This document shows, one piece after another, positions 1,617 to 60,785 of a DNA stretch of 64,000 bases. The stretch is from an uncultured virus (IMG/VR IMGVR_UViG_3300025803_002109) (Duplodnaviria; Heunggongvirae; Uroviricota; Caudoviricetes), in IMG/VR virus record IMGVR_UViG_3300025803_002109; one strand, written 5' to 3'. The notes below the pieces were generated by a model that ran no database searches, had not been told where the DNA came from, and saw nothing but the letters and a program-made list of their open reading frames with translations. A program made the translations under genes and the position numbers. Numbering within the stretch: the stretch's first letter is position 1; each line of letters starts with the position of its first letter.

Positions 1617-2504
1617 ATGAAAACTATGAACGTCCATAGTCCACACAGTTCTATGAAACATTTGGATCGAGTTCATATAATTATGCCTATTCATAATGTT
1701 CCCTATGATTCTTTTAAGCGAGCAATTCAATCAGTTATGCGTCAATCATTTAGAAAATGGAGATTGACTATTATCGAATCCGAAGAATCTGTAGCCTTAA
1801 GTTCAGTTCGAAAAGAATATGCAATCGATGCGGCAACCGAAGATTCTAGAATAGTTTATAAAGTTCAAAAAAGACCCGGAGTTTCTGCAGCCCGAAATGA
1901 AGCCATAGCAGAAGAAAACACGCCTTTAATCGCTTTCCTAGATGGAGATGATTGGTGGGAACCGCAATATTTAGAAATTATGGCCGGATCCGCTTTTGCG
2001 AATCCAAACACAGATATGTTTTTCTGCCGAGCAGTCTATCAAAACATTGTAGTGTCTCAAATTACTGGTGCAAATGATGTGCATATACTTCCTTTTGAAG
2101 AATATGAAGATATAGAATATGTTCACGAAGATCTAATGCATTATTATTTTATGACGACACCTGTTTATCCTTCTGGATTAGTTGTTCGAAGAGAGGCAAT
2201 GGAGCAAGTAGGAAATTTTGATGAAACTTTAAATCGTGTAGAAGATGTAGATCTTTTAATGAAATTAACTATGCCAGCAATAGAAACCGGTATCGCTAGA
2301 AAAATTCTATACTTGCCATATGATCTCATGTTTAGAGATATGTCTAAAGAAGATACTAAAGTTCCGGCCTGGAATACTCCAGAAGAGTTTCAAGATATTT
2401 TAGTTTCTCGTTATCCACTTCCGTGGCCTCATTCTAAACCCGAACATATTTCAGAGATAGAGTGGAGTTGTATCCTAGATTTAACTGCCAACTTAAGGTC
2501 TTGA
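1617..2504 (+). CDS. Glycosyltransferase family 2 (GT-A fold)
   Basis: IIMPIHN, RAIQSVMRQS, GVSAARNEAI, IAFLDGDD (DxD), VGNFDE...EDVDL motifs. Confidence 0.9.
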   Translation: MKTMNVHSPHSSMKHLDRVHIIMPIHNVPYDSFKRAIQSVMRQSFRKWRLTIIESEESVALSSVRKEYAIDAATEDSRIVYKVQKRPGVSAARNEAIAEENTPLIAFLDGDDWWEPQYLEIMAGSAFANPNTDMFFCRAVYQNIVVSQITGANDVHILPFEEYEDIEYVHEDLMHYYFMTTPVYPSGLVVRREAMEQVGNFDETLNRVEDVDLLMKLTMPAIETGIARKILYLPYDLMFRDMSKEDTKVPAWNTPEEFQDILVSRYPLPWPHSKPEHISEIEWSCILDLTANLRS

Positions 2505-2541
2505 ATACACAAGAGCAACCCCTAGGACAAAGTATATATAC

Positions 2542-3015
2542 TTGGTTTTCCCTGATATGGTTATGGGACTATGGCTACACGCAGATTCGCTGGACGATAT
2601 TGAGATAATTTTGGATGGTGATCCAATAGATGATTCTTTTGTTGCTTATGAACTAACAAATATTCATTCTACAGAAGAAGTAGAATTCATGTCTATGGCT
2701 AAGAAAATAGTTATTGACGCAGACTATGATTTATTATTTTCTTTATTCGGTTCACCGAATGTAAACACATCACCCACACTACTAGATACCAATGTAGAAT
2801 GGGATTTGAAAGTTAGAGCCTATGCGGGCAGAGAAGGTTGGGAGGCTGGACACATTTATGCAGCGAGCGAAAATTATACTATCAGGATTTATGATGGAGA
2901 TGCTAGTGATTCAGATAATTTTAGATTAAATACTCGATGGAATGTTGCTAGTGAGATTTCTCCTATCGTTTTAGAAGAAGATATGGAAAATATTTTAACA
3001 GGACAGAGGAGATGA
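2542..3015 (+). CDS. Hypothetical protein
   Basis: 157 aa acidic ORF, first of a tightly packed run. Confidence 0.65.
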   Translation: MVFPDMVMGLWLHADSLDDIEIILDGDPIDDSFVAYELTNIHSTEEVEFMSMAKKIVIDADYDLLFSLFGSPNVNTSPTLLDTNVEWDLKVRAYAGREGWEAGHIYAASENYTIRIYDGDASDSDNFRLNTRWNVASEISPIVLEEDMENILTGQRR

Positions 3016-3019
3016 TTAA

Positions 3020-3310
3020 ATGGCTTATTTATTAAAAGTAGATGGAACAATGGAATATATGGGGCAAAACCCTCCACTTAAATTACTACAGAAGGCTGTT
3101 GGTGGTTGGATAGAACCTGTCATGATGGCTAATGGAGATATTATGTATTGTAATGAAGAAGGTAAAATAATGGATTTGCCACACAACCCTGCCGCCAACA
3201 AACTTATTAGTTTTGCCTATGACTACATAGTAGGAGATGTGGTCGTTATGAGTGATGATATGCCGAGTCCAACGAATGAGAATTTATTAAAAACAGGTGA
3301 TGATGAATGA
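3020..3310 (+). CDS. DUF3846-like protein
   Basis: LQKAVGGWIE...YCNEEGK...LPHNPAAN...IVGDVVV pattern. Confidence 0.75.
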   Translation: MAYLLKVDGTMEYMGQNPPLKLLQKAVGGWIEPVMMANGDIMYCNEEGKIMDLPHNPAANKLISFAYDYIVGDVVVMSDDMPSPTNENLLKTGDDE

Positions 3311-3546
3311 AAGATAAACAAATGTTTAGAATAAATGAGGCCAGATTAGATTATCTAATGACACTATCTGGAGATGAATTAGTAGCCGAAATATGCCGTA
3401 TGACAGATTCCGTAATATCTCATTTACAACTATTAGATAGGGTAATTATTTCTGGAGAAATAGACCAGCGTAAAGCACTACTAACTTCTGAAGTAGATCT
3501 TAGAGCCAGTTTAGGTATTGAATTACTTCCGTATGGTTTGGAGTAA
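3307..3546 (+). CDS. Hypothetical protein
   Basis: ATGA overlap with upstream gene; AGGTGA Shine-Dalgarno. Confidence 0.65.
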   Translation: MKDKQMFRINEARLDYLMTLSGDELVAEICRMTDSVISHLQLLDRVIISGEIDQRKALLTSEVDLRASLGIELLPYGLE

Positions 3547-5266: not shown

Positions 5267-6451
5267 TTGAGTAGTAGTTCAATTCCCCCTCAAAGATATG
5301 TTCTTATTGATGCTGGATATTTTATAGGTCGTCAGACTAGATGGTGGCGGCCTAGAGCCAGTCCACGCCGAAGGTGGGGCATCTATAAAAATAATCCTAC
5401 TACTGAAAACTATAGTAAATATATTGAATCTTGTGCTAAAGAACTTAAAAAAGATATTGGATTTCTAAAGTTCAGAATTAATAATTCTGGGTTCGGTAAA
5501 CCAGATACTAAAATAATCGTTTGTTATGATGGAGTTCAGGGTAAAATAAAAAGATTAAATAAATTTGAGGCTTATAAGGCTCACCGAAATGCGGGTTCTG
5601 AATTTAAATCTGAAGATGGATCCATTCCAGACCTTCGAAAAAACTTTATTGAATATGGATACGATCCCTCTGCTTTAGTTTCTTTTTCTCCAAAATCTAG
5701 AATGACTGATTGGAGTTCTCTTTATGAGGCCGACAAAGAAGCCGATGATTTAATTGCCGAAAAAGTATTATCTATTTTAACCGACCGAGCGTCACATCCA
5801 GATAAATTTAATCCTAAAATATTAATTATTTCTTCCGATGCCGATCTCTGGCAACTCTGGAAGTATACAGATCCCACTACTCCAAAAACTTTTTTAGGAA
5901 ATACTGCGGATCCCTCAGATCCAATAGTTCCCACTAGTATACTATTTCACAATATGAAAGAAATCATTACTCCAGATTCTGCTATGGAATTGCTACGGTC
6001 TACTAAGTCCAGTAAATCCGGAACTTATAGCACTTCGCTCCCGTCTTGGAGTCTTTATGCCGATCTCAAATCTATTACTGGAGATAATTCTGATAACATT
6101 CCGGGTTGTCCCGATACTGGTTTCGCCCGTGCCTCCCGTTTAATAACTACCTACCAGGGTCTTGAATACATTCCAGATGAATATCTTACTATTTATTTCG
6201 TAGCCGATCCAAAATATATTTCTGAAAAATTAGAAGCCTGGAGAGCAGAGAATAATTATACTTACAAATATTGTATAGAAACTTATGGGAACTTTTGTAA
6301 GTCACTCATGAAACAAGAAATCAAAAAGATTTGGGGAGAAGACTATCTAAAAATAAAAGATATCGTAGGTGATCAAGGATTTGTTAGCACTAATTATAAA
6401 TCACATTGTCTAACTTACCGAGAAATCATAAAATTGCCTTTCGATTGCTAG
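5267..6451 (+). CDS. 5'-3' exonuclease / flap endonuclease (PolI 5' nuclease, T5 D15, T4 RNase H type)
   Basis: LIDAGY, VCYDG, YKAHR, EADDLIA, ISSDADLWQL, GDNSDNIPG (H3TH). Confidence 0.9.
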   Translation: MSSSSIPPQRYVLIDAGYFIGRQTRWWRPRASPRRRWGIYKNNPTTENYSKYIESCAKELKKDIGFLKFRINNSGFGKPDTKIIVCYDGVQGKIKRLNKFEAYKAHRNAGSEFKSEDGSIPDLRKNFIEYGYDPSALVSFSPKSRMTDWSSLYEADKEADDLIAEKVLSILTDRASHPDKFNPKILIISSDADLWQLWKYTDPTTPKTFLGNTADPSDPIVPTSILFHNMKEIITPDSAMELLRSTKSSKSGTYSTSLPSWSLYADLKSITGDNSDNIPGCPDTGFARASRLITTYQGLEYIPDEYLTIYFVADPKYISEKLEAWRAENNYTYKYCIETYGNFCKSLMKQEIKKIWGEDYLKIKDIVGDQGFVSTNYKSHCLTYREIIKLPFDC

Positions 6452-8176: not shown

Positions 8177-8191
8177 GGAGGTCTTGAATAC

Positions 8192-8974
8192 ATGAGTTGG
8201 ACTATTGATATTCACGAAGACGCTTGGTTTGCTTTGCATTTGAACGGAAGCCATGAGGGACTGCCCGAAGGTGATTTCAAATACGAAAGTAATAATAGAG
8301 TTGCCCTCGTAGAAAGAAAAACTTGGTCGGACGCTTACAACTCTTGGAGGTCTAAAAGATTAGAAGATCAACTTTCTCGAATGCTTCTTCGAGAAGATGT
8401 CAATCATCCCTCACAAGTAATTTTACTAGTCGAGGGTCGCAAAGAAACTTTATTTGGATACGGCTCCGGAAGTTCTAGAAAAACTAATGCTGACAGCAAA
8501 AAGCAAGCCGAGAATTTACAAGCATTTTTAAATAGAATTTCTGCTGAAATTTGTCCAGTCGTATATACTTCGGGACAGTCTGGAACTTTGCGTTATCTCA
8601 AAGCATTGGCTACTCGTTTAGATTCCGGAGATTTTGGAGATCTAGTTCGTAAGCCGACCATAGTTAGTTCTTCTCGAAATCAATCTCATGCTTTCTTAGA
8701 AACAATTCCTGGAATTGGAAAGACTACGGCTAAGAAAATTGCGGCTCATTATAATTCTTTTAGTGAATTCTTTATGGATTTAAATTCTTTTTCTTTTGAA
8801 GCCGAAACTAATCAACCCGGATCCTCTGATCAAGAACTTATGAAAACTTTTTTATGGAAGTTAGGTCCTGCCAAAGTTAAATCTCTAAAAACATTTTTAA
8901 CTGCCGAAGACAACTGGGTCAGCCATCAAACTAAAACTCCGAGAGAGGTCTTGAAGACAATAGGTGGTAGTTAA
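8192..8974 (+). CDS. ERCC4-type (XPF/Mus81/Hef) structure-specific nuclease with HhH
   Basis: GDF...VERKTWSD (GDxnERKx3D), RLEDQLSRM, LLVEG, IPGIGKTTA. Confidence 0.9.
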   Translation: MSWTIDIHEDAWFALHLNGSHEGLPEGDFKYESNNRVALVERKTWSDAYNSWRSKRLEDQLSRMLLREDVNHPSQVILLVEGRKETLFGYGSGSSRKTNADSKKQAENLQAFLNRISAEICPVVYTSGQSGTLRYLKALATRLDSGDFGDLVRKPTIVSSSRNQSHAFLETIPGIGKTTAKKIAAHYNSFSEFFMDLNSFSFEAETNQPGSSDQELMKTFLWKLGPAKVKSLKTFLTAEDNWVSHQTKTPREVLKTIGGS

Positions 8975-9651: not shown

Positions 9652-11541
9652 ATGCGTGGATCATATCAATGTTGTATTTGTGAAAATAATTTTTCTGGAT
9701 ACGGTCATAATCCTCAGCCAATAGACGATACTGAAGGGGCACGATGTTGTGATAGATGTAATTCTAGCGTAGTGATCCCAGCCAGATTGAAAAATTATAT
9801 TCTTGGATCGGAATCTTCAGATAAAGAAGATGCGTGGGGTTTGGAAAAAAGTAGTGCTATCTTAGCCGGAGTTTTCGGAATTGCCCTAGAAGGATTATTG
9901 AATCGTTTAGAAGATTCAGTAGTCGACTTAATGTCGGGCGAAGATAAACCTCATGAAGTAGCATATTATACAGATTGTATTGATTATCTTTGTAGTGGTA
10001 TGGCTGACACTCTTGAAGCCAACTCTGAAGAAATGGATCCTGCAATTGTAGGTTCGATAGTAAGTATGCTAACTATGACTGCCGTAAAGATATCTTCCTA
10101 TGAACAAATTCCAGAAATCAAAATGGCAATGGATCATTTAGATAGTGACTCTGAAGAATCTTCTGATGCTATTGCAGAGATCGTTGCCGAAGAAACTAAT
10201 GAGTTCGGAGAATCTTTAGATATCGATATGTGGTCTGCTGAAGGATCTGGAAAAATTGATAAGTGTCCTGTTTGTGAAGGAACTCAAGTTCTAGAGCAGA
10301 TGGAAATGAAAACTTCTGACTTATGTCTAGGACATAGTGATGCTTTTGATGATTTAAATTTGGATGTTCCCTATGCCGCAGAAGATTCTGAAGAATGCAG
10401 CACCGAAGGGTGTGAAAATGAAGCCGGTTATTTTGACAAGGCCAAAACAATTCCAATTCCAAAAGGCATTTGTAAGCGTTGTTTCATTCGCCCTATCAAT
10501 CCCGAAACCGCCCAAGAATTAAGAGTGATGAGGCGACAAGAGAATTCATACAGAGCAGAAGAAGATGAAGAAAAAGATTTGGATATAGATAGATCCTCAG
10601 TCACTCGCCGAGAATCTATAAGAGAGTCTCCAGAGTATTATGTTCATAGTCTGGATGAATATTTCGGACCTTATTATTCTATAGAAGATGCAGAAGATGG
10701 CGTAGAAAGATTAGTATCTAAAGGAATTTATATTATTGGCATAACTAAAGGTCAAAATGAGTGGATACAAGATCTTACTGAGCAAGAAGCAGAATCCTTC
10801 GGTTCTGAAGGCCAAGTAAGTAGTTGCTCCGGTAATGTATATCTTGATGATTGGGATTTCGATTATGAGGGATTTGATAATAAAAAACAGATTAACATTA
10901 ATGACCCCAATCTGGACATCGAAGATGTAGTGTCTCCAGACATAAAAGCCACTATTTGTTGTAGTTCCAGTGGTGAGTGTCAAGAACAAATATTTGACAT
11001 AGATCAAGTATTAGAAATAATTTATGAGAAAGAACTTTCATTAAATGATCTTGCGAAAGCAGGTGTAATGGAAGAAATTCTAGAAGAAATGGGACTGAAC
11101 TGGGATGAAGAAATAGGTTATTCTGCCGAAAGTTACCAGGGTCAAATTGGAGATATAGAAAGTATTTCTCGTTGGATGAGAAACACCGCAAATGCCGGAA
11201 CAGATTATGATGATTGGTATTGGGATGGTGAAAAACTAATGGTTTATGCGGTCGACCCTATTGCTGGAATAGATACGGAAGAAGAATATACTAAAGCAGA
11301 TCTAATGGAATTAGGAGTATTAGAAGATATGTTCCCTAATATGGATGAGTTTTCTGAGGGTGAAGAATTTTCTGCAGAAACTATAGAAAAGTTTTTCGAA
11401 CAAATTGAAGCCTTGCTTAACAAAACGGCTGGCAATTCTTGGAGTTTAGATTCTGATGGTTATCCAGAGGAAAATCCACCTAAAGTAAATATCAACATTT
11501 CTATGGAGCCTGAGTCTCCAGAATTCTTCGAAGGTCTTTAA
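9652..11541 (+). CDS. Acidic modular protein with Zn fingers and repeated [FYW]-x-[AS]-E motifs
   Basis: TTATATAG at 9623; N-terminal CCIC...GHNP.P...CCDRCN finger; WSAE, YAAE, YRAE, FGSE, YSAE, FSAE. Confidence 0.85.
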   Translation: MRGSYQCCICENNFSGYGHNPQPIDDTEGARCCDRCNSSVVIPARLKNYILGSESSDKEDAWGLEKSSAILAGVFGIALEGLLNRLEDSVVDLMSGEDKPHEVAYYTDCIDYLCSGMADTLEANSEEMDPAIVGSIVSMLTMTAVKISSYEQIPEIKMAMDHLDSDSEESSDAIAEIVAEETNEFGESLDIDMWSAEGSGKIDKCPVCEGTQVLEQMEMKTSDLCLGHSDAFDDLNLDVPYAAEDSEECSTEGCENEAGYFDKAKTIPIPKGICKRCFIRPINPETAQELRVMRRQENSYRAEEDEEKDLDIDRSSVTRRESIRESPEYYVHSLDEYFGPYYSIEDAEDGVERLVSKGIYIIGITKGQNEWIQDLTEQEAESFGSEGQVSSCSGNVYLDDWDFDYEGFDNKKQININDPNLDIEDVVSPDIKATICCSSSGECQEQIFDIDQVLEIIYEKELSLNDLAKAGVMEEILEEMGLNWDEEIGYSAESYQGQIGDIESISRWMRNTANAGTDYDDWYWDGEKLMVYAVDPIAGIDTEEEYTKADLMELGVLEDMFPNMDEFSEGEEFSAETIEKFFEQIEALLNKTAGNSWSLDSDGYPEENPPKVNINISMEPESPEFFEGL

Positions 11542-11601
11542 GCCATAACTACTTGCTCAAAGTATATATAGGTAGTTGCCATAATTAGATAATAGATTTC
11601 T

Positions 11602-11895
11602 ATGGCAGTTCCAGATTATAAAGATGCAGTTTGGCTAAAGAATGCTTACTTGCATAAGAAACAAACTATGAATGCTATTGCTAGTTCTTGTGGAGTATCT
11701 CCAATGACTATTCAAAATTGGTTAGATAGACATCAAATTCCAACTCGTCCTCGTGGTCGCACAGTTGCTTCATCTGTGGCTCCTCCTCGACTGCGAACTC
11801 AAGGATACGTCACTATATCTATTAAAGAATATGATAACTTGAAGCAAGCCAAACTTAGATTAGAAAATCTAAATAATCAAACTATAATGGAGTGA
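11602..11895 (+). CDS. Helix-turn-helix DNA-binding protein
   Basis: YKDAVWLKNAY...TMNAIASSCGVSPMTIQNWLDRHQIPTR. Confidence 0.8.
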   Translation: MAVPDYKDAVWLKNAYLHKKQTMNAIASSCGVSPMTIQNWLDRHQIPTRPRGRTVASSVAPPRLRTQGYVTISIKEYDNLKQAKLRLENLNNQTIME

Positions 11896-12689
11896 ATGAT
11901 ATGATGAAATCTCAATCTGAAGAAAATGATTCCTTAGTTATTGGTAATTTTTCGGCTACTCTATCTGCAGGTCATGCTAAAGATTTGTTAAAAGGTTTGG
12001 AATCTCTGGGCGATCAAACAATATTTACTTTCTCTGCTGATAAAGGATTGGAAACCGGAATGGTTTCTAATGACGTTTCTACTTTAATTCGTTGTCAACT
12101 GGTTCCCGAACTTTTTGAAGAATATACATTTGTAGGAGATGCTCCTATAAAACTAGGAGTAGTTTTAGAAAGAGTAAAAGATATCACTAAAACATTGACT
12201 ACTAAAGATACCTTAAAATTTGTCTATGATTCTAAACAACCTAATATCCTTCTGATAGATGCAAATAATATGCGAAGAACTATTAGACTAGTTAAACTAG
12301 GGTTGCTAAAAGAAGTTCCTGTAATGCCCATTCCCGAAAATGGATGGGATTATAATTTTGATATACCTCTAAAATCTGTAAAAGATTATCTTAAAGCAGT
12401 GCCCAAAGGATTTTCAGAATTCAGTGTAATTGTAAATAAAAGTTTGGAAACTTTTACTCTATTGACTAGTGGAGAGTCTCCTATAGAACTTTCTTTAGTT
12501 CCTGAAAATTGGAATTGCACTGGCGATTCACGAACTCACTATGGCGTAGAAAAATTAGCCGCCGGAATTTCGATGGCTAAGAAAACCAATGCCACCATTT
12601 ATGGCGGAGATAGTTTGCCAGTTCTGATACAATGGAATCATGCTGAGAACTTTAAGTGCGAATGCGGGGTTGCACCCCGAATGAAGTAG
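11892..12689 (+). CDS. pcn: PCNA sliding clamp (divergent, archaeal type)
   Basis: About 250-aa core; L.PELFEEY, LGVVLERV..I.K, YGVEKL, LPVLIQW, terminal VAPR (canonical LAPR). Confidence 0.8.
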   Translation: MNDMMKSQSEENDSLVIGNFSATLSAGHAKDLLKGLESLGDQTIFTFSADKGLETGMVSNDVSTLIRCQLVPELFEEYTFVGDAPIKLGVVLERVKDITKTLTTKDTLKFVYDSKQPNILLIDANNMRRTIRLVKLGLLKEVPVMPIPENGWDYNFDIPLKSVKDYLKAVPKGFSEFSVIVNKSLETFTLLTSGESPIELSLVPENWNCTGDSRTHYGVEKLAAGISMAKKTNATIYGGDSLPVLIQWNHAENFKCECGVAPRMK

Positions 12690-13102: not shown

Positions 13103-15121
13103 ATGACCGCCGAAGAAAACCCAACCAGCACCGAAGACAACTCTACCCACTATCAACCTCTCGATTTTGCCAACACTATTTTTCAGCAAAGATATTCTTT
13201 AGGAGGAGAAGAAGATTGGGCAGACTCTTGTAAAAGAGTTGCTAATTATATTGCTGCTGCCGAAGTAAATGGATCCCGATCCAAATGGGAAGAAAGATTT
13301 TTCCATTCTTTAGTTCACAATCATTTTATTCCTGGAGGAAGGATTTGGTATGGTGCGGGTCGTCCCAAAGGTCAATTACTAAATTGTTTCGTAGTTCCTA
13401 CCGAAGACTCTAGAGAAGGTTGGGGTAAAACTGTTTCCGATATGTTAATCATTTCAGGAACTGGAGGAGGCGTAGGAATGAATTTCTCTCCTATCCGCCC
13501 TCGTGGAACTAGTATTCAAGGAACTGGTGGAGAAGCCACTGGTGCGGTATCACTCATGGAAGTTATTAATCAGACTGGAGAAGTTATCAAGTCTGGTGGC
13601 GGTCGCCGAACTGCTTTAATGTTATGTTTAGATTATAGTCACGGAGACATCATGGAATTTCTACACAAGAAATTTAATAAAGTCGCCCTAGAAACTGTAG
13701 AAGAAATCGATGAAGCCTTAACTACGGCTTTTCCATATTTGCCTCCGGCAGAACGCAGTAATATGTTGACCGCTATTGCGGGAGATGTAGAAAATAATTC
13801 TGAACTAAACCTTTCTGATTCTGAAGTTCTGAGAACTATTTTAAGACCGCTGATCAAACACGAAAAAGATCAGATATTAAAGAATGCTAATATATCTGTG
13901 CTAGTAGATGATGACTTCTTTGCTGCGGTCGAAGCCGATGAAGAAATCCAAATTACTTGGAGAGGTAATGAAGTTAGTTCTTACCGTGCCAAAGATCTCT
14001 GGGATTTATTAATTCAGAATGCATGGGAATCCGGAGAACCTGGAATTCTAAATATTGGTTTAGCCAATAAAATGAATAACATTCATTATCATAAGCCATT
14101 GATTTCCACTAATCCTTGTGGAGAGATTTGGTTAGAAGCCTATGGATGCTGTGATTTAGGAGCCATTAATTTGAGCAATCACATTGCCTACGACAGCAAC
14201 GGAAATCCAGATTTTGATTGGGAATTATTGGCCTCTACTATCACTACTGGAGTTAGATTTTTAGATAATGTGCTAGACGTAAATAATTATCCTCTGGCAG
14301 AGATCGAAAAGAATTGTAGAGAGGTTCGAAGAATCGGATTAGGAGTTATGGGATTAGGTCATGCTTTAGTAAAATTAGGATTACCTTATAACCGAGCCGA
14401 AGGTCGAAAGAAGGTAGACAAATTATTTAACTTTATCAAAAAGATTTCCTATGAAACCTCTACTTACCTTTCGGCAGAAAAAGGTTGTTTCCCCGCCTTC
14501 GATGCTGAACAATTTTTGGCCTCTGGTTTTTGTGAAACCCTTCCTAAGTCCATCAGATCTAAAATTGCAGAATATGGAATGCGAAATTGTGCCGTGCTAA
14601 CTATTGCTCCTACTGGAACTACTAGTTTAGTTGCCGGAACTAGTTCTGGTATTGAACCTATATTTGCGGCCGGATATTCTCGAACTTATTATGCTGACTC
14701 AGAAAACTCAAACGAGAGGGTCTTGAAGACAGAAGTGGTTATTGACCCCTTGTTCCAAGAATTATGGGCGGCTACTAATGGCAGTGATCAAGAACTTTTA
14801 GAGAAATCCTTTTTAGGTGCCATGGATATTGGAGTGGAAGATCATTTGAGAATGCAAGTAGTTTGTCAGAAACATATTGATAACGCAGTTTCAAAAACTA
14901 TCAACTTACCTCATGAGTATCCAATTGAAGATTTCAGCAATATGATGTTGAAATATGGTCCTCAACTAAAAGGAACAACTGTATATCGTTCTGGAAGCCG
15001 AGGTAATGAACCTTTGACTCCTATGAAAGCATCCGAAGCCATTGAATATTTGAATAAACAATATGAATTTGAAGTGGCGGCTGCTATGTCTGATTGTCCT
15101 TCGGGAATTTGTCAAATATAA
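13103..15121 (+). CDS. nrdJ: Class II (adenosylcobalamin-dependent) ribonucleotide reductase
   Basis: PGGR, LLNCFV, GGGVG, RRTA, TNPCGE, CDLG, GLGVMG, APTGT, SSGIEP, SKTIN, KGTTVYR, C-terminal CPSGIC; no small subunit nearby. Confidence 0.9.
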   Translation: MTAEENPTSTEDNSTHYQPLDFANTIFQQRYSLGGEEDWADSCKRVANYIAAAEVNGSRSKWEERFFHSLVHNHFIPGGRIWYGAGRPKGQLLNCFVVPTEDSREGWGKTVSDMLIISGTGGGVGMNFSPIRPRGTSIQGTGGEATGAVSLMEVINQTGEVIKSGGGRRTALMLCLDYSHGDIMEFLHKKFNKVALETVEEIDEALTTAFPYLPPAERSNMLTAIAGDVENNSELNLSDSEVLRTILRPLIKHEKDQILKNANISVLVDDDFFAAVEADEEIQITWRGNEVSSYRAKDLWDLLIQNAWESGEPGILNIGLANKMNNIHYHKPLISTNPCGEIWLEAYGCCDLGAINLSNHIAYDSNGNPDFDWELLASTITTGVRFLDNVLDVNNYPLAEIEKNCREVRRIGLGVMGLGHALVKLGLPYNRAEGRKKVDKLFNFIKKISYETSTYLSAEKGCFPAFDAEQFLASGFCETLPKSIRSKIAEYGMRNCAVLTIAPTGTTSLVAGTSSGIEPIFAAGYSRTYYADSENSNERVLKTEVVIDPLFQELWAATNGSDQELLEKSFLGAMDIGVEDHLRMQVVCQKHIDNAVSKTINLPHEYPIEDFSNMMLKYGPQLKGTTVYRSGSRGNEPLTPMKASEAIEYLNKQYEFEVAAAMSDCPSGICQI

Positions 15122-17485: not shown

Positions 17486-17540
17486 TTCTATGTTAGTTTT
17501 CATTAGCCAAGAACCTAAATGTGCTATCCGCCCCAATCCA

Positions 17541-17557
17541 GAGGAAGTAAGGAGGGT
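17541..17557 (+). repeat. 17-bp element GAGGAAGTAAGGAGGGT, copy 1 of 4
   Basis: Exact copies at 17541, 29304, 47206, 60708. Confidence 0.9.
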
Positions 17558-17590
17558 TTTGAAGCCATAGGCTTTAAAGAAGAATATAAA

Positions 17591-17800
17591 GGCGGACCGG
17601 GAATGTGGGATTACACACTCCAAATGGCGCAAGGCTCTCCGTTGCATCTTTGCCATTACTGCTCACCCGGATTTTAACCGGCGATTCTCTCCACTTGGCC
17701 GTCATCGGAGGGTCTGTTTCCCTCGTCTATTGCATACCTTAACCTCACCTAATCGGTTTATTCAGTCACGGTCCTCGCCCACAGTCTTAAGTTGTGGGCT
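17591..17800 (-). ncRNA. Structured ncRNA of about 210 nt, manA-motif-like
   Basis: Own TTAAATAG box (17830-17823, - strand); 5' hairpin GCCCACA/TGTGGGC; GGACCG pairs with 3' CGGTCC; T-rich tail; GTGACTGAATAAAC...GGTTAAGGT and AGTAATG segments recall manA RNAs (from memory). Confidence 0.65.
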
Positions 17801-18924: not shown

Positions 18925-18926
18925 CT

Positions 18927-47205: not shown

Positions 47206-47222
47206 GAGGAAGTAAGGAGGGT
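47206..47222 (+). repeat. 17-bp element GAGGAAGTAAGGAGGGT, copy 3 of 4
   Basis: Exact match; here it also provides a Shine-Dalgarno for the vWA gene. Confidence 0.9.
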
Positions 47223-47230
47223 CTTTAAGT

Positions 47231-48313
47231 ATGGGAGGAACATTTGAGCAAACCGCAATTGTTACTAAAGATCCCTATGCGTGGTTGTCTGAATCTCCGA
47301 TAGAGGCAGATCCCGCCGATTATCCTGAATTTGAAAATCCATTGGAAGTTGTAGTTCGTTCATTAAATCAGATGATATTTCCTTCACCTAAGAAAATTAA
47401 ATTTCCTGAAGAACCAACTGGTCGAAAATCTTGGATGCCAGGTATTGATCCAGAATCTAGAGTAATTCCTGAGACTATTGTTCCTGGAATTCTAGAAGGC
47501 AATCCTCTACAAAGAGTTATGCAATATACTCCTTCAGGAGATCCGACAGAAGGTGAAGCCACCTTCATTAATTTTATTTGTGATTGTTCAGGTTCGATGA
47601 GCCGATCAGATATGGGTTTGTTGCCTAATGGAGATCAATGTGCCCGTTGGGAAATGGCTAGGATTATTTGTTCTAGCATTTTAGAAGTTGCTAAAACAGA
47701 AGAACACTATTTCCAAGTAATAGGATATGATACTTCTGCCTGGGATATTTGGGAAGGTCCTTCTAATGATTACGATGCGGCTCTAGATTATATTTTAAGA
47801 TTTAATGCTGATGAATCCTCCGACACTGGAGCCCAGGCTCCATTCTTTCCAAGAGGTGGCACTGCTGCCGGAACAGGAATGGCTAGAGCATTGGAAAACA
47901 TGGAAAAGTTTGTAGTAGGAGGTAAATGGAAGGTTAAAAATTGTTATACTTTCGTTATTTCAGATGAGGATCTGTCATTTGGTGAGGCTAACAATAAGTC
48001 TAACCGCACAGTTGGTTATTGGGATGAAAAGTTACGGGCTTATGGTCCAGTTTTCTATGCCTTTACTACTCAAGTTCTTCCCGATGGATCCGTAAATGAA
48101 AAAGTTTCTGGACAAATGGTTAGAGCAATTAAATCCTTAAAAGAGCAATTAGACAATCATTATGCCGGTAGATATAAAGTAAGCGATTGTTCGACAAGTT
48201 TTGGATTATTTTATGATCCGATTACTAAGAAGACGATTGGAGGGGGAACTTTTATAGAAGTTTGTCAAGGAAGGTCTAATGTAGCCTGTGAAGGAGCATT
48301 TAGTGACAAATAA
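47231..48313 (+). CDS. von Willebrand factor A (vWA) domain protein
   Basis: MIDAS FICDCSGSM, GGT...GMARAL, FVISD. Confidence 0.85.
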   Translation: MGGTFEQTAIVTKDPYAWLSESPIEADPADYPEFENPLEVVVRSLNQMIFPSPKKIKFPEEPTGRKSWMPGIDPESRVIPETIVPGILEGNPLQRVMQYTPSGDPTEGEATFINFICDCSGSMSRSDMGLLPNGDQCARWEMARIICSSILEVAKTEEHYFQVIGYDTSAWDIWEGPSNDYDAALDYILRFNADESSDTGAQAPFFPRGGTAAGTGMARALENMEKFVVGGKWKVKNCYTFVISDEDLSFGEANNKSNRTVGYWDEKLRAYGPVFYAFTTQVLPDGSVNEKVSGQMVRAIKSLKEQLDNHYAGRYKVSDCSTSFGLFYDPITKKTIGGGTFIEVCQGRSNVACEGAFSDK

Positions 48314-48389: not shown

Positions 48390-49646
48390 ATGTCTGACAT
48401 TACTCTGGGCGACCACATTAAATTTCCGGCTTACGGAGAAAAATCTGTATCTTCGCAAGTTGTTTTCGTTACTGGTAAGAGAGGTTCCGGAAAATCTTAT
48501 ACCGCTGGTGTGATGATGGAAGAATTTGATAAGGCTCAGTTACAATTCGTTTGTTTCGATGTTTTGTCTGCCCATGCCGGTATGGATGCATTACCTAATG
48601 TAGAATCTATCCGTCCTCGAGAAGATGAAACTATTGATATGAATTTATTAGTCTCTAAGATCGCTACCGGAAATAAATCTTTAATTATAGATATTGGAGG
48701 ATGCACATTACCTAAGCAACAACTTTTAATTGCTGATTATTGTGAGGCTCTAATTGATGCCAAAATTGGCCATAACCATAATAAAACTTTAATGACTATT
48801 ATTGAAGAATGTCAGGATTTCGTGCCCCAACAAGGACGGCCAGTTTCATTTTCACCAATTGTTAGACTTTGTAAGTTAGGTCGTGGATTAGGTTATGGTT
48901 GCACTTTGATTACTCAGCGACCTGCAGCCTGTAACAAAGAAGCCTTATCACAAGCGGCAGTATATCTAACGCATAATGTGATAAATAGCCGTGATCTCAA
49001 GGCTTTGGAAGAACAGTTGTCATTTGGAACTGATCGAGAAAGAGTAAAAAGAATTCTACAAGGTGTCAATGCGGCTCAAAAAGGAGAAGTCGTAGCCTAT
49101 GCTCCCGAATATTTCCGAGAAACAGGATACATTCGTATTGGTAAAATCCGTGGCGACCGCCGAGTTAAACATACTGGTGGTAACATTTCCGCTTCGCCAT
49201 TAACCAGTAATAATTCTGAATCTTTTGCTGGAACTAGTTCTCCTTCTGGAGAAATGATTGGAGACTATAGTAATTCATCCAATAATATTTCTTTTGCCGA
49301 AACTAGTTCTCCTACAGGTCTAGTTACTTTAGAACCTATTAGCAGTTTAGGAGGGGCTGGTGCAGCCTCCTCTTTGTTAACTAGTAATATGGGATTCAAA
49401 CCTTTAGATCCCTATGCGGCCTCTGAAATGGGTGGCGATAGATATCTTACCGACATGGATTTAGATTCTTCTCGAGAAGAAATTTTGACTTGGGATCCTC
49501 CAGTAACCTATGAGGGTCTTGAAGACATGAACTCTGATACATTTCTATCAGAGGAAACCAAAACATCTTTTATTAAAGGTCCTATTTGGGGCTTTGGTGT
49601 CGCAGTAATGATTGCTTCGGGTGCATATTTCGTAGTAAAGAAATGA
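48390..49646 (+). CDS. HerA/FtsK-superfamily ATPase (DUF87-like) with C-terminal TM anchor
   Basis: VTGKRGSGKSY, CFD, IIEECQDFVP, GRGLG...ITQRPA; Ser-rich linker; IWGFGVAVMIASGAYFVVKK-stop. Confidence 0.85.
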   Translation: MSDITLGDHIKFPAYGEKSVSSQVVFVTGKRGSGKSYTAGVMMEEFDKAQLQFVCFDVLSAHAGMDALPNVESIRPREDETIDMNLLVSKIATGNKSLIIDIGGCTLPKQQLLIADYCEALIDAKIGHNHNKTLMTIIEECQDFVPQQGRPVSFSPIVRLCKLGRGLGYGCTLITQRPAACNKEALSQAAVYLTHNVINSRDLKALEEQLSFGTDRERVKRILQGVNAAQKGEVVAYAPEYFRETGYIRIGKIRGDRRVKHTGGNISASPLTSNNSESFAGTSSPSGEMIGDYSNSSNNISFAETSSPTGLVTLEPISSLGGAGAASSLLTSNMGFKPLDPYAASEMGGDRYLTDMDLDSSREEILTWDPPVTYEGLEDMNSDTFLSEETKTSFIKGPIWGFGVAVMIASGAYFVVKK

Positions 49647-53966: not shown

Positions 53967-53981
53967 GGGGGTCTTGGATAC

Positions 53982-54476
53982 ATGAGTTTTAATAATTATG
54001 GAAAAATGAAAGATTCCTATGTATTGAAAGATTCTCACAGTAAGGCTAATTATAATATGGGTGATGCTCGTTTTATGGCCGCAGATACGGCTAGCAAACC
54101 TATGTTAGTTGTTGATGGCGGAGTAACTATGGATGCATTAGCATTTCGTAATACTTCACCCGTTACTCACTATACTCCTGAACAATTAGGTATGAGTGTA
54201 AGAGGGACTCCTTTTGAAAATGGAAGTCGAGGGGATACTTCTGAAGGACTAGGATCTCCTGACGAATATGGAAATGAACCACCTAACAATGCATACCCTG
54301 TAACTTATGATAAAGGAACTAGTTCTCCTATGGATCAAGGATTATACTTAGCAGAAGATAATTTAGTAAGTAAATTAAATTCTGGCATAATCGGAATGGT
54401 ATCTAAATATTGGGGAATTGGATTAATAATTGGAGCCATTGGTTATTCTGGATACTATTTAGGAAGCCGCCGGTAA
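53982..54476 (+). CDS. Tail-anchored protein
   Basis: Ends YWGIGLIIGAIGYSGYYLGSRR. Confidence 0.8.
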   Translation: MSFNNYGKMKDSYVLKDSHSKANYNMGDARFMAADTASKPMLVVDGGVTMDALAFRNTSPVTHYTPEQLGMSVRGTPFENGSRGDTSEGLGSPDEYGNEPPNNAYPVTYDKGTSSPMDQGLYLAEDNLVSKLNSGIIGMVSKYWGIGLIIGAIGYSGYYLGSRR

Positions 54477-54507: not shown

Positions 54508-56637
54508 ATGAGTATGAGCATCCCTACACCATTACAAATTGGACTAACTTTAGGTGGTGCAAAGATATCTCCTGTCTGGGCTTTTGGAGGTAAAAACACT
54601 CCTGGTTGGCAAGATTCTACTTTCACAATTATTGGAGACTATGATAAAATTACAGAATATGTAACTGAGGCTTTCAATAACCAGACTATGCCCAGTAATA
54701 TAAAAATTCGAGATGTTTTCGATCATAGCAACTCATATAAACCCTCAAATATAATTTCTAGTAATGACTTTCACGGTAATTACATTATATTTGCTATTAC
54801 TCCCGTTTTAAGTAAACTTACTAAAACTGGTAGCATCCAAGTTTGGCAGGAAATAGGAGTAATCGCTATTGAAGATAAATGGATTGAGAATGACTATCGA
54901 TTAATCGCTGCCAGTCAATCTAATCTCTCAACATCTATAGAAGGGTTCAGGAATAGCCTAAATAAAATTAAAAGTGAGTCTGATTATCCTGCCTATGGAT
55001 CCTTATCAAAATATGATATACTCAAAAATCCAGAGACTAAAGCATTCACTATTACTATTCATGGAAAACTTAATTCTACCAATATGGTAGTCACCAATCC
55101 TACCGAAATAATTCCTAAAGGGGGTCGAGATTTATTGACTCAGTTATATTCAGAAATGGAATCTGATATGTCTAAGAAAATTTCTCGCAGTAATTATGAT
55201 ATTGGATTACCTACTAAAAAATCTGTTTCAATTCCAGCAATTCCAAAAGTAACACCTATGTTGGCTAAAGACTTTTCAAAAGGGCATGGAAAAAGAATTG
55301 TATATCCGGCTCTAACTCAAAGAAAGTTTGATGGAGTTAGATGTTTATGTCATGTCTATTTAGATGATAATGGAGATTTCATAACTAAATTCATGTCTCG
55401 CCGTGCAGTAGAATACACTTGGTTAAGTGGCACTTATGATTCTCAAAATGTTTGGCAACCCTCTAAATCAGACATATCTGCTACTATTAAAAACATATTC
55501 AGTGGATTATTTTTAAACTCTACAAAATTACTTTCTTTTAAAGAGTTCCAGCGAAGAAACAAAATGGCTAAGGGAACTCCAGTATATACTATAGATAATG
55601 AAGATGAATTACAAGTAGTAAATGGAAATCTACCTACTAAGGATCTCGAAATTGCTTTGGCAGAAAAAAGTTATAACGATTACATTAAACTCGATGATAC
55701 GTTCTGGAGATCTGCATTCTCAACTAATTTAGAATATGTTGGGGATGAGCCTTGGTTCGAGAGTCAATCTACTCATAAAGTTATAGATTCCAAACGCCTT
55801 AGAATGATGAAGCAAATTCTTAAAGACGGTATATATTTAGACGGCGAATTATATTCGCATCAATTAGAATTTGATAGAATATCTGGTTTGTGTCGTAAAA
55901 AAACTTTTGACGAAAAGGATCAGAAGGATATATCTAAATTACAATATCGTATGTATGATTTCTTTTATGCTCCCTCTGAGGAAACATATGAACTATTTTA
56001 TAAATTTTCTGATAAAAAAGATGATGTAATGAAAAATTTTAATGCTCTTTGTATGGATAAAGTCGGTTATCATGCTGCCTATACTGACCGTTATGGAGTT
56101 CTTGCTAGTCTATATCAAGCCTATGTATTCTCTTTAATTGATGATATGGATCCGCTGATGAATAAAAGTGAAATAAAAAAGTTATCAGAATTTGATGCTG
56201 GACTACCAGTCAACTTAACGCAAAACATTTTAGTTAATTCTGAAAATGATTTAGAAAAAATTCATGACACTTTCGTAGATGAAGGTTATGAAGGACTAAT
56301 GATTAGAAATCTAAAAATGCCCTATGATTTTAGTCGTTCTTGGAACTTAATAAAATACAAGAAAATGAAAGATTCAGAATTCAGTATAGTGGGGGCTAAA
56401 CAAGGAACTGGAAACGCAGCCGGGGCCATAATTTGGACTTGTGAAACTGCAGATAAAGAACATACCTTCGAAGTTGTTCCTTTAGGAACAATAGATTCCA
56501 GGAAAAAACTTTGGAATGAATGGAATTTAACTCCGACTAAATTTATTGGTAAGCCACTCACAGTGCAATATCAAGAACTTACTCCTAAAGGAATTCCTCG
56601 TTTCCCTAAAGGAATTAGCATTCGTGATTATGAATAA
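54508..56637 (+). CDS. lig: ATP-dependent DNA ligase with N-terminal extension and insertions
   Basis: PMLA, QRKFDGVRC (KxDG), LDGELY, YDF, EGYEGLMIR, LIKYK, OB domain ending IPRFP. Confidence 0.9.
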   Translation: MSMSIPTPLQIGLTLGGAKISPVWAFGGKNTPGWQDSTFTIIGDYDKITEYVTEAFNNQTMPSNIKIRDVFDHSNSYKPSNIISSNDFHGNYIIFAITPVLSKLTKTGSIQVWQEIGVIAIEDKWIENDYRLIAASQSNLSTSIEGFRNSLNKIKSESDYPAYGSLSKYDILKNPETKAFTITIHGKLNSTNMVVTNPTEIIPKGGRDLLTQLYSEMESDMSKKISRSNYDIGLPTKKSVSIPAIPKVTPMLAKDFSKGHGKRIVYPALTQRKFDGVRCLCHVYLDDNGDFITKFMSRRAVEYTWLSGTYDSQNVWQPSKSDISATIKNIFSGLFLNSTKLLSFKEFQRRNKMAKGTPVYTIDNEDELQVVNGNLPTKDLEIALAEKSYNDYIKLDDTFWRSAFSTNLEYVGDEPWFESQSTHKVIDSKRLRMMKQILKDGIYLDGELYSHQLEFDRISGLCRKKTFDEKDQKDISKLQYRMYDFFYAPSEETYELFYKFSDKKDDVMKNFNALCMDKVGYHAAYTDRYGVLASLYQAYVFSLIDDMDPLMNKSEIKKLSEFDAGLPVNLTQNILVNSENDLEKIHDTFVDEGYEGLMIRNLKMPYDFSRSWNLIKYKKMKDSEFSIVGAKQGTGNAAGAIIWTCETADKEHTFEVVPLGTIDSRKKLWNEWNLTPTKFIGKPLTVQYQELTPKGIPRFPKGISIRDYE

Positions 56638-58426: not shown

Positions 58427-59115
58427 GTGAAAGTTTGTTGCCCACTGGAAAAACTTCATTATCTGATCTTTTAATTTATGGAGGTGGAGCCGTAATTTTA
58501 GGGGCTTTGGCTCTTAAAACTATGAGAGATAAAAATGTATTCGGTGCGAGTTCAGCGGCTGCTTACAGTGGTGGAGGTTATTCTGCATTACCTATGAATG
58601 AAGGTGGTGGATTTTACAAAACAATTACTAACACCCCTAACATGGACAGCCATGCTACTCAATATTCTATGGGTCCAGAATCTACCGGATTAGATCAATC
58701 CGCACCTTCTACCTTACTTCGTTCAGACTATGTAGAACCTTCTACTCCTGTTCAAGTAGATCCATTTAATGGATACGTTCCTCGACTTCCAGTAAATGCA
58801 GTTCGCCCTATGATTCCAGTTATTTCAGGAATTGGTGCTAACGCTATGGTATTATCTGCTGAAGGTAGTCAAGGTCGTTCTCGATCTGGCGACAATCAAG
58901 CCAATTCTACGGATGACTCCGGAGTATTAAATGGCCGTTTTGGTCGCCCTGCCTTAGTTCCTGGAACTAATGAAGGTTATTTAGATATGGCTACTGGTAT
59001 GACTAAGACTATGGATGAATGGCGAAGATCATATAGTTTATCTAGAATGAGTGATACCTTAGTTAGAGGTATGCCTATGTCTGGTGGTATTCCAGTTATG
59101 TTACGCCGAGTATAG
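58423..59115 (+). CDS. N-anchored Gly/Ser/Pro-rich protein
   Basis: LLIYGGGAVILGALAL; LSAE; ATGA overlap. Confidence 0.8.
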   Translation: MSESLLPTGKTSLSDLLIYGGGAVILGALALKTMRDKNVFGASSAAAYSGGGYSALPMNEGGGFYKTITNTPNMDSHATQYSMGPESTGLDQSAPSTLLRSDYVEPSTPVQVDPFNGYVPRLPVNAVRPMIPVISGIGANAMVLSAEGSQGRSRSGDNQANSTDDSGVLNGRFGRPALVPGTNEGYLDMATGMTKTMDEWRRSYSLSRMSDTLVRGMPMSGGIPVMLRRV

Positions 59116-59197
59116 ATTGTAATTAAATGTAATTAAATTTAATTAAATTAATTGCTGTGCCCGAAACATTAAGTATCTGTTCTCAACTACTATTACT

Positions 59198-60709
59198 ATG
59201 GCTAATCTTTTAGTAGTATATGATGCCTACTACGCTACTGATTGGAAAAAATTAGTATCTCCTCGTTCTCCAAGTATATGGTCGGGCGAAGAAGTCGCCC
59301 CGGAATTAATGCAGAGGCTAATGTCTGGCGAAGACTTAACTGTTGAAGAACTAATGAAGTTGTCCGGTGCTACTGATGAGTTATCCGGATTATCTACTAC
59401 TCTAGACAAAATTATTGAAGATTTCGGAGTTCCTCTTTCCTGGAACGATGAAGATGACTTTGGAAAGTTTTTATCCGATATTCAAAACAAAGAAAGTTTT
59501 AGGAAAGAAATCCAAAATAAATTATCTTCTGCCGAACCGGCTGCTTGTTTTGCTATGACTGGAGAAGTTTATCGAGCCGTAGAATCTGCTGGTGACCCTA
59601 ACAAAATATTAAAATATTTTAGACCTTTAATTCTTTCTTGGAATGATCAGGATCCCGAGGCTAATTTATTTAATAATACGGTTCAGTATAAAACTAATTT
59701 TATTTCTGGAAATCTAATTCAAGATCCATATTACAAACTAAATTTTAAATTAGTGGCCATTAACTCAGCAGAAGCAGAAAAAAATTCTATGTCTGAAGAT
59801 GATGCCTGGTTTGCTAAGAATTTTCCAACTAAAGAAAATACCCCTATTGATCCCGAATTTATTTTTGGTAATCTCCCGAATCCTTTATTTTTCAATTCCA
59901 TAGATTCCAGATCTGCTTTAAACACTCCTATTCCCATACTAGAAATTCCTGAATTAACAGATATCTCTTGGCTGTCCACTCCTGGAAATAACTTTCAGAT
60001 GATTTGTCAAAAAGTTATGGATATTCAAGTAAAAAATCTAGAGGCTATGCAAGACTCTAAAGAAGTAGATGCCGATATAGTTTATGCTCCAATTAAATAT
60101 TTAATTAATTTACCTCTACAAGAGTTAGAATATATTTCTAACTTAGAAGTTCTAGAAAAACATAATATATTTACTGATGATGAGTCCGGATTTAATGAGC
60201 AAAAGATTCCGCAAAGTATGGAACAATATCTGACTAGTCAGTGGGCCGGAAAAGATCCCAATATGGTTATCAAGAATACTCAATCTATTTGGGTAAGTCT
60301 TTCTGGAGTTAGAGGTCCCGTAAACTATGTTCTGGGCTTAGAAATTTTAGGAAAGTTTTTGGCTGCTGGTGTTACTGATCCAGTAGAGATTTCTGAATCC
60401 TCTCAAATAGACTCCGAAAATGTTCCGGTGTCTTGGCCAGCAAACAAAACTAGTGACTGGGAATGGGAATCACAGCAAGTTTTTCGATATTTGAATGAAA
60501 ACTTTAATCCAGAAGGAAAAGAAACCGGAGTAGCCCCTAACAGATCCTTCAAAGATTATGTTAAATTAGTCCATTCTGCAGAGTCTGGAGATGAAAAATC
60601 TATTACTAAAATCCAAGATATTATTTCTGATATCTCGGAAATATTGGCAATCCTGCAATCCGAACCAAAAAATCAAAATTTGGTATCTCTAGACGTTTAC
60701 GATTACTGA
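59198..60709 (+). CDS. Hypothetical acidic protein
   Basis: 503 aa; TTAAGTAT at 59169, 29 nt before ATG. Confidence 0.8.
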   Translation: MANLLVVYDAYYATDWKKLVSPRSPSIWSGEEVAPELMQRLMSGEDLTVEELMKLSGATDELSGLSTTLDKIIEDFGVPLSWNDEDDFGKFLSDIQNKESFRKEIQNKLSSAEPAACFAMTGEVYRAVESAGDPNKILKYFRPLILSWNDQDPEANLFNNTVQYKTNFISGNLIQDPYYKLNFKLVAINSAEAEKNSMSEDDAWFAKNFPTKENTPIDPEFIFGNLPNPLFFNSIDSRSALNTPIPILEIPELTDISWLSTPGNNFQMICQKVMDIQVKNLEAMQDSKEVDADIVYAPIKYLINLPLQELEYISNLEVLEKHNIFTDDESGFNEQKIPQSMEQYLTSQWAGKDPNMVIKNTQSIWVSLSGVRGPVNYVLGLEILGKFLAAGVTDPVEISESSQIDSENVPVSWPANKTSDWEWESQQVFRYLNENFNPEGKETGVAPNRSFKDYVKLVHSAESGDEKSITKIQDIISDISEILAILQSEPKNQNLVSLDVYDY

Positions 60710-60724
60710 GGAAGTAAGGAGGGT
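60708..60724 (+). repeat. 17-bp element GAGGAAGTAAGGAGGGT, copy 4 of 4
   Basis: Exact match, overlaps the upstream TGA; continues into CTTGAACCCA. Confidence 0.9.
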
Positions 60725-60785
60725 CTTGAACCCATAAAGGGTTGTTTAGTAATCAATCTTAAATAGTCGTGTAGAGAATATGTAA

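Follow-up and report, generated by a model that had tools for sequence, protein, structure and literature searches.

The window analysed here, the whole 64,000-nucleotide stretch of an uncultured virus (IMG/VR record IMGVR_UViG_3300025803_002109), carries a 13-bp DNA word, GGTCTTGAAKACA, at 14 places along its length. Every long open reading frame (ORF) of the window lies on the + strand, about 90% of the sequence is coding and the GC content is 37.3%, rather than the roughly 36% given in the original prediction, which had been made from the letters. Pfam-type matches among the genes are few: a GT2 glycosyltransferase, a FEN-like exonuclease, ERCC4, a ribonucleotide reductase, an ArsA-like ATPase, a HerA-like ATPase and an ATP-dependent ligase. 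The copies of the word, its near-copies and its degenerate forms are distributed as follows (nt, nucleotides).

2497-2509, + strand: exact copy, T form; its TGA stops the glycosyltransferase gene 1617-2504, with a TATA-like box about 24 nt downstream
6158-6170, + strand: exact copy within the FEN-like 5'-3' exonuclease gene, frame GLEY
8180-8192, + strand: exact intergenic copy, ending on the A that opens the ATG of the ERCC4 nuclease gene
8947-8959, + strand: exact copy, G form, 15 nt from the end of the ERCC4 gene, frame VLKT
14719-14731, + strand: exact copy within the ribonucleotide reductase gene, encoding RVLKT
18691-18703, + strand: exact copy; its first base is also the final G of the TAG that stops gene 18356-18691
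19242-19254, + strand: exact intergenic copy, followed after 10 nt by the TATA box of gene 19291 (DUF6899)
21106-21118, + strand: exact copy, 77 nt inside ORF 21029-21568, frame VLNT
24195-24207, + strand: exact copy between the stop at 24189 and the ATG at 24207 of the gene for a 966-residue protein
27100-27112, + strand: exact copy; its TGA stops the 966-residue gene, with a TATA box, ACTTTAAGTAGT, 5 nt downstream
31095-31107, + strand: exact copy, 42 nt inside gene 31053-31454, frame GLED
35325-35337, + strand: exact copy within gene 34297-35610, frame VLKT
43305-43317, + strand: exact copy; its TGA stops the gene for a 1404-residue protein and its last A begins the ATG at 43317
49515-49527, + strand: exact copy at residue 376 of the HerA/B204-like ATPase, within its disordered linker, frame GLED
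40232-40244, + strand: exact core with a GCCT tail, GGTCTTGAAGCCT, in a variable region of the 1404-residue protein
60722-60734, + strand: exact core with a CCCA tail, GGTCTTGAACCCA, intergenic, preceded by GAGGAAGTAAGGAG
53970-53982, + strand: one-mismatch form, GGTCTTGGATACA, adjoining the ATG at 53982
11533-11545, + strand: degenerate form, GGTCTTTAAGCCA, spanning the stop of gene 9652-11541, with a TATA box about 15 nt downstream
17555-17567, + strand: degenerate form, GGTTTTGAAGCCA, preceded by GAGGAAGTAAGGAG
29318, + strand: degenerate copy
47220-47232, + strand: degenerate form, GGTCTTTAAGTAT, preceded by GAGGAAGTAAGGAG and adjoining the ATG at 47231

All 14 exact copies were confirmed on recount at the positions first predicted, on the + strand and with none on the – strand when both were counted, and the near-copies predicted at 40232, 53970 and 60722 were likewise recovered. 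The 9-mer core of the word, GGTCTTGAA, is found 16 times on the + strand and never on the –, so that the polarity ascribed to the word, which depended on unequal strand frequencies, stands. The observation is real and far beyond chance. No copy of GGTCTTGAAKACA appeared in any of 100 dinucleotide-preserving shuffles (mean 0.00), and in codon-preserving shuffles (n = 300), where synonymous codons were permuted within each gene and intergenic bases shuffled so that proteins and codon usage were unchanged, the core averaged 0.48 copies with a maximum of 3, against the 16 observed. Allowing up to two mismatches to the word gives 22 matches in the window, 20 on the + strand and 2 on the –, compared with 3.27 expected. 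One-mismatch forms of the core show neither enrichment nor strand bias, with 8 on the + strand and 11 on the – in the window and 32 and 31 in G002, a relative of 150 kb, and recognition must therefore be exact. The interrupted palindrome GTCTT-G-AAGAC that had been pointed out is a true property of the G form in the window's own clade, but is absent from the conserved pattern of the other clades.

A longer repeat, GAGGAAGTAAGGAGGGTYTT, occurs four times (17541, 29304, 47206 and 60708), each time leading into an exact or degenerate word. Its counterpart in G002, GGGGAGAAGT, lies directly after stop codons and in some cases runs straight into an ATG, in others into the word and then an ATG. The exact copy at 86246 of G002 follows GGGGAGAAGT upstream of the homolog of gene 60786 (match from 86553).

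The word was followed through a family set consisting of the window and 79 related loci, a metagenome scan with the 966-residue protein having given 80 loci at 30-100% identity. For the family counts identical contexts were removed and orthologous sites kept, and hence the copies are not independent events. In 1.03 Mb the core has 143 non-redundant copies on the + strand and 3 on the –, where about 4 per strand would be expected by chance, and it is present on the + strand in most of the 80 loci and on the – strand almost never. The family consensus is 5'-V GGTCTTGAA N M C A-3', with C at +11 in 134 of the 143 copies, A at +12 in 122/143 and T at –1 in 2/143. The word is found in loci at 30-37% identity to the query protein and at 35-50% GC, which bears out the conservation expected of it in related genomes. 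Some relatives are poor in the word: G001, a syntenic IMG/VR relative of 160 kb, has 6 copies on the + strand and 1 on the –, G006 has 3 and 1, and the motif-poor loci of the L150-L171 group have 0 or 1 copy per locus of 11-23 kb. No replacement word was found when one was sought in G001. A scan of IMG/VR for GGTCTTGAATACATG returned 79 single matches on separate contigs, at chance level, one of which was later located in G002.

Sites turn over amongst the relatives. The junction before the 966-residue gene holds the word in 10 of 35 non-redundant relatives, and in strain L094, where the protein is 100% identical, the word is nevertheless replaced by GGTTCTGAA; the copies at 24195 and 27100 are both retained in the 90% and 70% clades. 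Internal copies in homologs of this gene differ in position between clades. At the junction equivalent to 18691 there is an exact copy in G007, and a one-mismatch word lies between the homologs of 18356 and 19618 in G001. Contigs from RNA libraries run across 18691 and 24195, and the word is intact at 8180 and 18691 in two divergent contigs; as contigs are proof of neither transcription nor its absence, these were not used as evidence.

As originally described, the word is read in three frames, giving GLE at 6158, 31095, 40232 and 49515 and xVLK or xVLN at 8947, 14719, 21106 and 35325, the third frame being the one that supplies a stop. In G002 the two coding frames are used equally (GLE 9, xVLK/N 9). 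The peptide RVLKT of the ribonucleotide reductase is encoded by AGG GTC TTG AAG ACA in the window and by AGA GTA TTG AAA ACA in G002, which has no copy there, and judged from these codons the copy arose by synonymous changes alone. In the exonuclease, G002 carries a copy at the equivalent residue (GLED) and G001 has GTLD and no copy; the copy at 31095 is retained in several clades, the equivalent residues being DLEN in G002 and CIQD in G001, and at 35325 the orthologs differ (PSPTG in G002). Five coding copies aligned to their orthologs differ by substitutions with no insertions or deletions, a further two lie in regions that align unreliably, and two coding copies fall in disordered or variable regions. 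The frames, the synonymous difference and the lack of coding insertions or deletions uphold the claim that selection acts on nucleic acid and not on protein. A mobile mini-insertion or repeat element was considered and rejected, as the five aligned copies show no insertions or deletions and the flanks are not conserved.

Whether the nucleic acid concerned might be RNA depends on how the word relates to transcription and translation. About 30 genes of the window have a box resembling ATTAAATAGT some 22 nt before the ATG and no Shine-Dalgarno sequence (e.g. 50621, 52859, 62457, 63377, 32740 and 4563), and genes downstream in operons have GGAGG- or GGTGA-type sites. The equivalent box in G001, CTTTAAGTA, also given in the form aaNCTTTAAGTA(G/T), occurs 38 times on the + strand and 8 on the –, mostly 22-24 nt before an ATG. 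A TATA box together with leaderless mRNA is an archaeal pattern, and these boxes look like archaeal promoters with a TATA box and B recognition element driving leaderless mRNAs. The word itself is concentrated at gene junctions, which hold 8 of the 16 window cores against 10% non-coding sequence. An ATG stands at +12 in 30/143 family copies (2.8% background) and a stop triplet adjoins the 5' side in 23/143 (6.5% background). In the window the TGA of the word ends three genes (at 2504, 27107 and 43312) and its last A is that of the ATG of four (8192, 24207, 43317 and 53982), both in agreement with the earlier description; the last A of the copy at 49515 (49527) belongs to an internal Met and no gene start. 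Ahead of genes with a promoter of their own, the word simply occupies the stretch from the preceding stop codon to the TATA box.

These associations, and the sharing of one strand by all genes and copies of the window, are what would favour a signal in mRNA, whether an extended ribosome-binding or stop-restart element, a cleavage site for leaderless mRNAs or a terminator. The links to ATG and stop are, however, explained by double use in a compact genome, the word probably giving the TGA stop, its 5' GG extending a purine-rich ribosome-binding site and the rest serving as the spacer before the ATG. About half of all copies lie deep inside genes, one-mismatch forms are not enriched as they would be for a signal of the Shine-Dalgarno type, and the real promoters are the separate TATA boxes. 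No structured RNA was detected, with 0 Rfam matches and 0 tRNAs, and six word sites that were folded gave no consistent fold (z-scores –1.76 to +0.55). The start-associated sequences of Cluster K mycobacteriophages are also 13-bp, asymmetric and present in some 10-20 copies, and they always precede starts and follow the direction of the gene. The word resembles them in being a repeated asymmetric 13-mer often found directly before start codons, but it has only the 30/143 at an ATG, about half of its copies are intragenic and its polarity ignores the gene strand.

This last point comes from G002, in which the genes lie on one strand from 0 to 113 kb and on the opposite strand from 113 to 150 kb (verified by Pfam for DP2, MCM, TFIIB and the Hjc-like protein). 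Across the 150 kb all 26 copies of the core lie on a single strand (26:0), with no switch of polarity. In the 37-kb arm of opposite genes there are 5 copies on the genome-wide strand and 0 in the sense of the genes, compared with about 0.14 expected (37 kb / 4^9); two of the five are between minus-strand genes, one is at a gene edge, one is inside DP2 and one is in a small plus-strand ORF, so four of the five are antisense to or between minus-strand genes. The check on orientation against gene strand thus favours DNA, and an mRNA signal is very improbable. Of the two alternatives in the original prediction, a genome-wide code and an RNA-level signal, the polar genome-wide code stands and the RNA signal is mostly rejected. 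The other 79 loci have almost all their genes on the + strand and so add nothing on independence from gene strand, and G011 is the same virus as G002 and not an independent case.

The copies in G002 are evenly spaced, with a mean interval of 5.5 kb and a coefficient of variation (CV) of 0.52 that was reached in 0.03% of random placements (P = 0.0003); a largest gap as small as that observed occurred in 0.85%. The exact cores of the window lie about 3-4 kb apart with a CV of 0.67 (P = 0.065), which falls to 0.49 once four near-copies are added post hoc. One strand kept despite the switch of genes, together with the even spacing in G002, argues for a signal at the level of DNA rather than protein or mRNA. 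The word is a one-strand signpost in DNA, conserved in an undescribed family of archaeal virus-like elements.

Even spacing, a bounded largest gap and a polarity independent of genes are also what might be expected of a signal tied to one strand in replication, such as a priming or initiation site on the discontinuous strand or a polar fork barrier. The relatives have their own replisome: G002 encodes both PolD subunits (DP2 and DP1), MCM, PCNA, TBP, TFIIB, an Hjc-like resolvase and PolX, and a PrimPol-like protein is also amongst the relatives' replication genes. In G002, however, both GC and AT skew flip with the gene strand and the word does not, although the skew may be coding bias only. 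Relatives like G001 encode PolD DP2, and G001 has homologs of most other G002 proteins, yet the word is not enriched there. Known primases read only about 3 nt, which also counts against a replication signal, and such a role is decidedly unlikely. Chi is another exact, polar and over-represented word, found about every 4-5 kb, which follows the direction of replication and needs RecBCD or AddAB; neither is amongst the Pfam matches of the window or of G002, and the host here is archaeal.

Three genes of the window bear on what might read or use the word.

32097-32525, + strand: winged-helix protein, candidate reader; predicted fold with a helical C-terminal extension
48390-49646, + strand: HerA/STIV-B204-like ATPase (STIV, Sulfolobus turreted icosahedral virus), presumed to act in genome packaging
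54508-56637, + strand: ATP-dependent DNA ligase, family match in the C-terminal part

The protein encoded at 32097 is the most conserved of the window, at 85% identity to that of G002 where its neighbours have 35-60%, and has 377 homologs. Its model (predicted local distance difference test 90) has PadR, forkhead and STIV F93 as best fold matches, with weak E-values, and the segment PRRYTSREVVGILRNRP, the third helix of the model, is nearly invariant in relatives both rich and poor in the word and is taken to be the recognition helix. The original prediction had named helix-turn-helix or winged-helix proteins at 11602, 12731 and 32097 as readers. For 32097 the winged-helix fold agrees with this, while its equal conservation where the word is rare leaves it as a candidate with no support from correlation; 11602 has a weak helix-turn-helix match and 12731 none. 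ORFs 11602 and 11892 seemed specific to motif-rich genomes, but 11892 (11892-12689, 265 residues) turned out to be a PCNA sliding clamp, having no Pfam family at the default threshold and an E-value of 6e-9 against a solved PCNA chain. ORF 27165, of no recognisable fold family, occurs in 20 of the 30 loci rich in the word and in 1 of the 11 that are poor in it; it was set aside as a reader since all 28 recovered homologs come from the window, 70% and L111-L133 clades and several motif-rich loci have no such ORF. A screen of ORFs specific to G002 gave no candidate reader.

A conserved DNA-binding protein of this kind could have the word as its operator, spread from one promoter to become a chromosome-organising or temporal-class site. 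Many copies do lie 0-25 nt upstream of TATA boxes, and the site just before the TATA box of the 19618-type gene carries the word in 11 of the 18 non-redundant relatives, is the sole copy in the motif-poor L159 and L166 and has a one-mismatch form in G001, L120 and L125. The near-invariance of the presumed recognition helix in the most conserved protein is consistent with such a role, but 32097 is as conserved where the word is rare. Copies stand at varying distances from the TATA box, some of them between it and the ATG, and an operator leaves unexplained the single strand genome-wide, the copies at synonymous sites deep in genes and the even spacing. It would therefore seem improbable as a general account of the word.

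The ATPase had also been suggested as a reader. Its model matches HerA and the STIV packaging nucleoside triphosphatase B204 with a TM-score of 0.71-0.77 normalised to B204, and consists of a core (residues 1-260), a disordered stretch of about 130 residues (264-397) and a single C-terminal helix. The model has no DNA-reading domain, which argues against that suggestion. KOPS (FtsK-orienting polar sequences) and SRS (SpoIIIE recognition sequences) are strand-biased words of the 8-mer type that orient FtsK and SpoIIIE; they change strand at the terminus, and their reader is a winged-helix gamma domain. The word is like them an exact polar word in duplex DNA in a system with an ATPase of the FtsK/HerA superfamily, and could be a polar guide that orients or loads a translocase along a linear genome, in packaging by a HerA/B204-type enzyme or in genome entry. 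The single polarity over 150 kb regardless of gene strand, the exactness of the word, its high density and even spacing and the family's ATPase are all compatible with this. Unlike KOPS and SRS there is no strand switch over the 150 kb of G002, the ATPase model has no folded winged-helix reading domain, and the motif-poor G001, G006 and L150-L171 group retain the ATPase or the rest of the gene module. To our knowledge no virus has translocase guides, and a guide of this sort is unlikely. The specific matS-, parS- or KOPS-like roles proposed earlier are not supported, the last failing on the strand switch and the reading domain.

A closer likeness is to the nick-associated words of certain phages, as described in the accounts cited here. 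In phage tf, whose transcription units are convergent, 5'-TACTRTGMC-3' occurs 14 times; every site is on the top strand, every one is nicked, and relatives of the phage retain them (PMC3517423). In Rembedalsseter, WACTRTGAC occurs at 13 places on a single strand, which coincide with strand-specific breaks or coverage drops in nanopore reads, and WACTRTGAC is conserved across 61 phages that show little similarity in their DNA (PMC11780129). The nick words of tf, the LUZ24-like phages and Rembedalsseter, of T5 and of the phiKMV-like phages are, like the family word, short, exact, asymmetric and on one strand (PMC3517423, PMC11780129). Those of the tf type number about 13-14 per 45 kb, and the gene blocks of the genomes that carry them are convergent (PMC3517423, PMC11780129); as here they have few single-substitution forms, are conserved despite little DNA similarity and lie both inside and outside genes. 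In the archaeal pleolipovirus HRPV-3 (Halorubrum pleomorphic virus 3) interruptions on one strand of the DNA likewise lie beside a short word, GCCCA (PMC3384331). In that account, however, the interruptions beside the 5-mer are short gaps of single-stranded DNA, and their polarity changes along with transcription (PMC3384331), whereas the polarity in G002 ignores the genes. The family word also differs from the tf type in sequence and in length (13-14 specified positions), and in place of tailed phages there is an archaeal host and a large genome with a HerA/B204-type ATPase. The tf-type words are tied to observed nicks, while the family word is known here from assembled sequence alone.

Five features are common to the phage nick words and this one: an exact asymmetric word, confinement to one strand, indifference to gene direction, conservation without DNA similarity and occurrence both inside and outside genes. 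On account of this shared signature a strand-specific nick site is rated the most likely reading of the word, with a probability of roughly 0.4. The word is best filed with the phage nick-associated genome words, although its defining feature, a physical nick, is carried over by analogy and is unproven; only by analogy, too, do we infer the enzyme and the purpose. The word would be read on DNA, exactly and in one orientation, by a sequence-specific factor of the virus family, and is kept on one strand of the linear chromosome at roughly even intervals. Copies are located where they are cheapest, in intergenic sequence, as a TGA stop, as the spacer before an ATG, at synonymous sites and in disordered linkers. 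There the word would mark site- and strand-specific single-strand nicks in the virus DNA; a virus nuclease would introduce these late in infection, and the virus ATP-dependent ligase could seal them. The ligase, the FEN-like exonuclease and the ERCC4 nuclease of the window are compatible with this.

Several observations weigh against a nick site. A nickase was sought by gene presence and absence between motif-rich and motif-poor relatives and no gene tracked the word; the nucleases that are present, ERCC4 and the FEN-like enzyme in the window and the Hjc-like enzyme in G002, are not specific to motif-rich genomes. Contig ends in the 38 contigs tabulated showed no association with the word, assembled contigs being unable to reveal the ends of molecules. 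Spacing is more even here than in the phages, whose nicks cluster toward one end, and no regular spacing is reported for tf-like words (PMC11780129). The five G002 copies in the arm of opposite genes have no 3' CA, with A at +12 in 0/5 compared with 11/21 in the other arm, and may be weaker sites. In G007 there are 8 coding-strand copies within about 41 kb of one end and 3 elsewhere on the other strand, in a genome where a control word is frequent as well. Finally, the 19618-type site persists in motif-poor clades beside a TATA box, which hints at a promoter-linked role for that copy at least.

A wider proposal, in which the word is a chromosome-wide direction code of an archaeal giant virus whose evenly spaced, one-way signposts steer a DNA motor or nick-primed replication or packaging along a linear genome above 150 kb, is possible though rather unlikely. 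The same tentative standing covers its corollary that the reader would be a family-specific factor such as the winged-helix protein 32097. If true, an archaeal virus would for the first time be seen to organise its genome by a KOPS-like or multi-nick system.

According to the cited account, phages have been known to carry one-strand nick words for about 50 years, with no purpose yet established for them (PMC11780129). The same statistical signature in a large, abundant, uncultured archaeal virus-like family points to a general rule in how virus chromosomes are organised. The family gives a much larger comparative data set, with hundreds of sites turning over under selection for spacing, and the word provides both a simple sequence marker by which the family can be recognised and a definite place at which to map nicks in long-read metagenomes that already exist.

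The element that carries the word is itself notable, as its relatives encode PolD, MCM, PCNA, TBP and TFB, and the gene content of the family suggests an archaeal virus or extrachromosomal element of very large size. The source contig of the window is 100.8 kb, a relative at 99% sits in a contig of 322.7 kb, and contigs of the family range over 100-322 kb; G007 has inverted terminal repeats of more than 3 kb. A literature search for such a family found no description, and one for the word gave unrelated primers only. The nearest Atlas neighbours of the G002 DP2 are mostly Thermoplasmatota, which is a lead only, and a scan of PolD DP2 against genome contigs for a host gave no match. Runs of 17 studies contain the virus, from estuary, freshwater, sediment and seawater. 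ORF 50621 was considered as a capsid protein and rejected, as it is rich in proline and glycine and its sequence gives no hint of a capsid fold.

In the 99% strain (L095:1-7964, on the 322-kb contig) the part of the window upstream of about 21.7 kb is replaced by three large + strand genes of 1146, 262 and 764 residues, none of which has a homolog in the window or contains the word. Gene 21651-23288 encodes TSP3-type repeats and a CAAGGTCAAGG tandem repeat in which several related contigs end; it has the peak summed contig depth (18,424 in one bin, run X15) and most of the contig joints and loose ends. The repeat gene aside, RNA-library contig depth is highest at 17486-18355 and 18704-19241 (37-59, X15). 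These two stretches have no + strand ORF of at least 60 residues apart from a 77-residue GTG ORF at 17921-18154, and contain minus-strand ORFs at 17866-18303 and 18748-19205; they could encode a small RNA or short genes.

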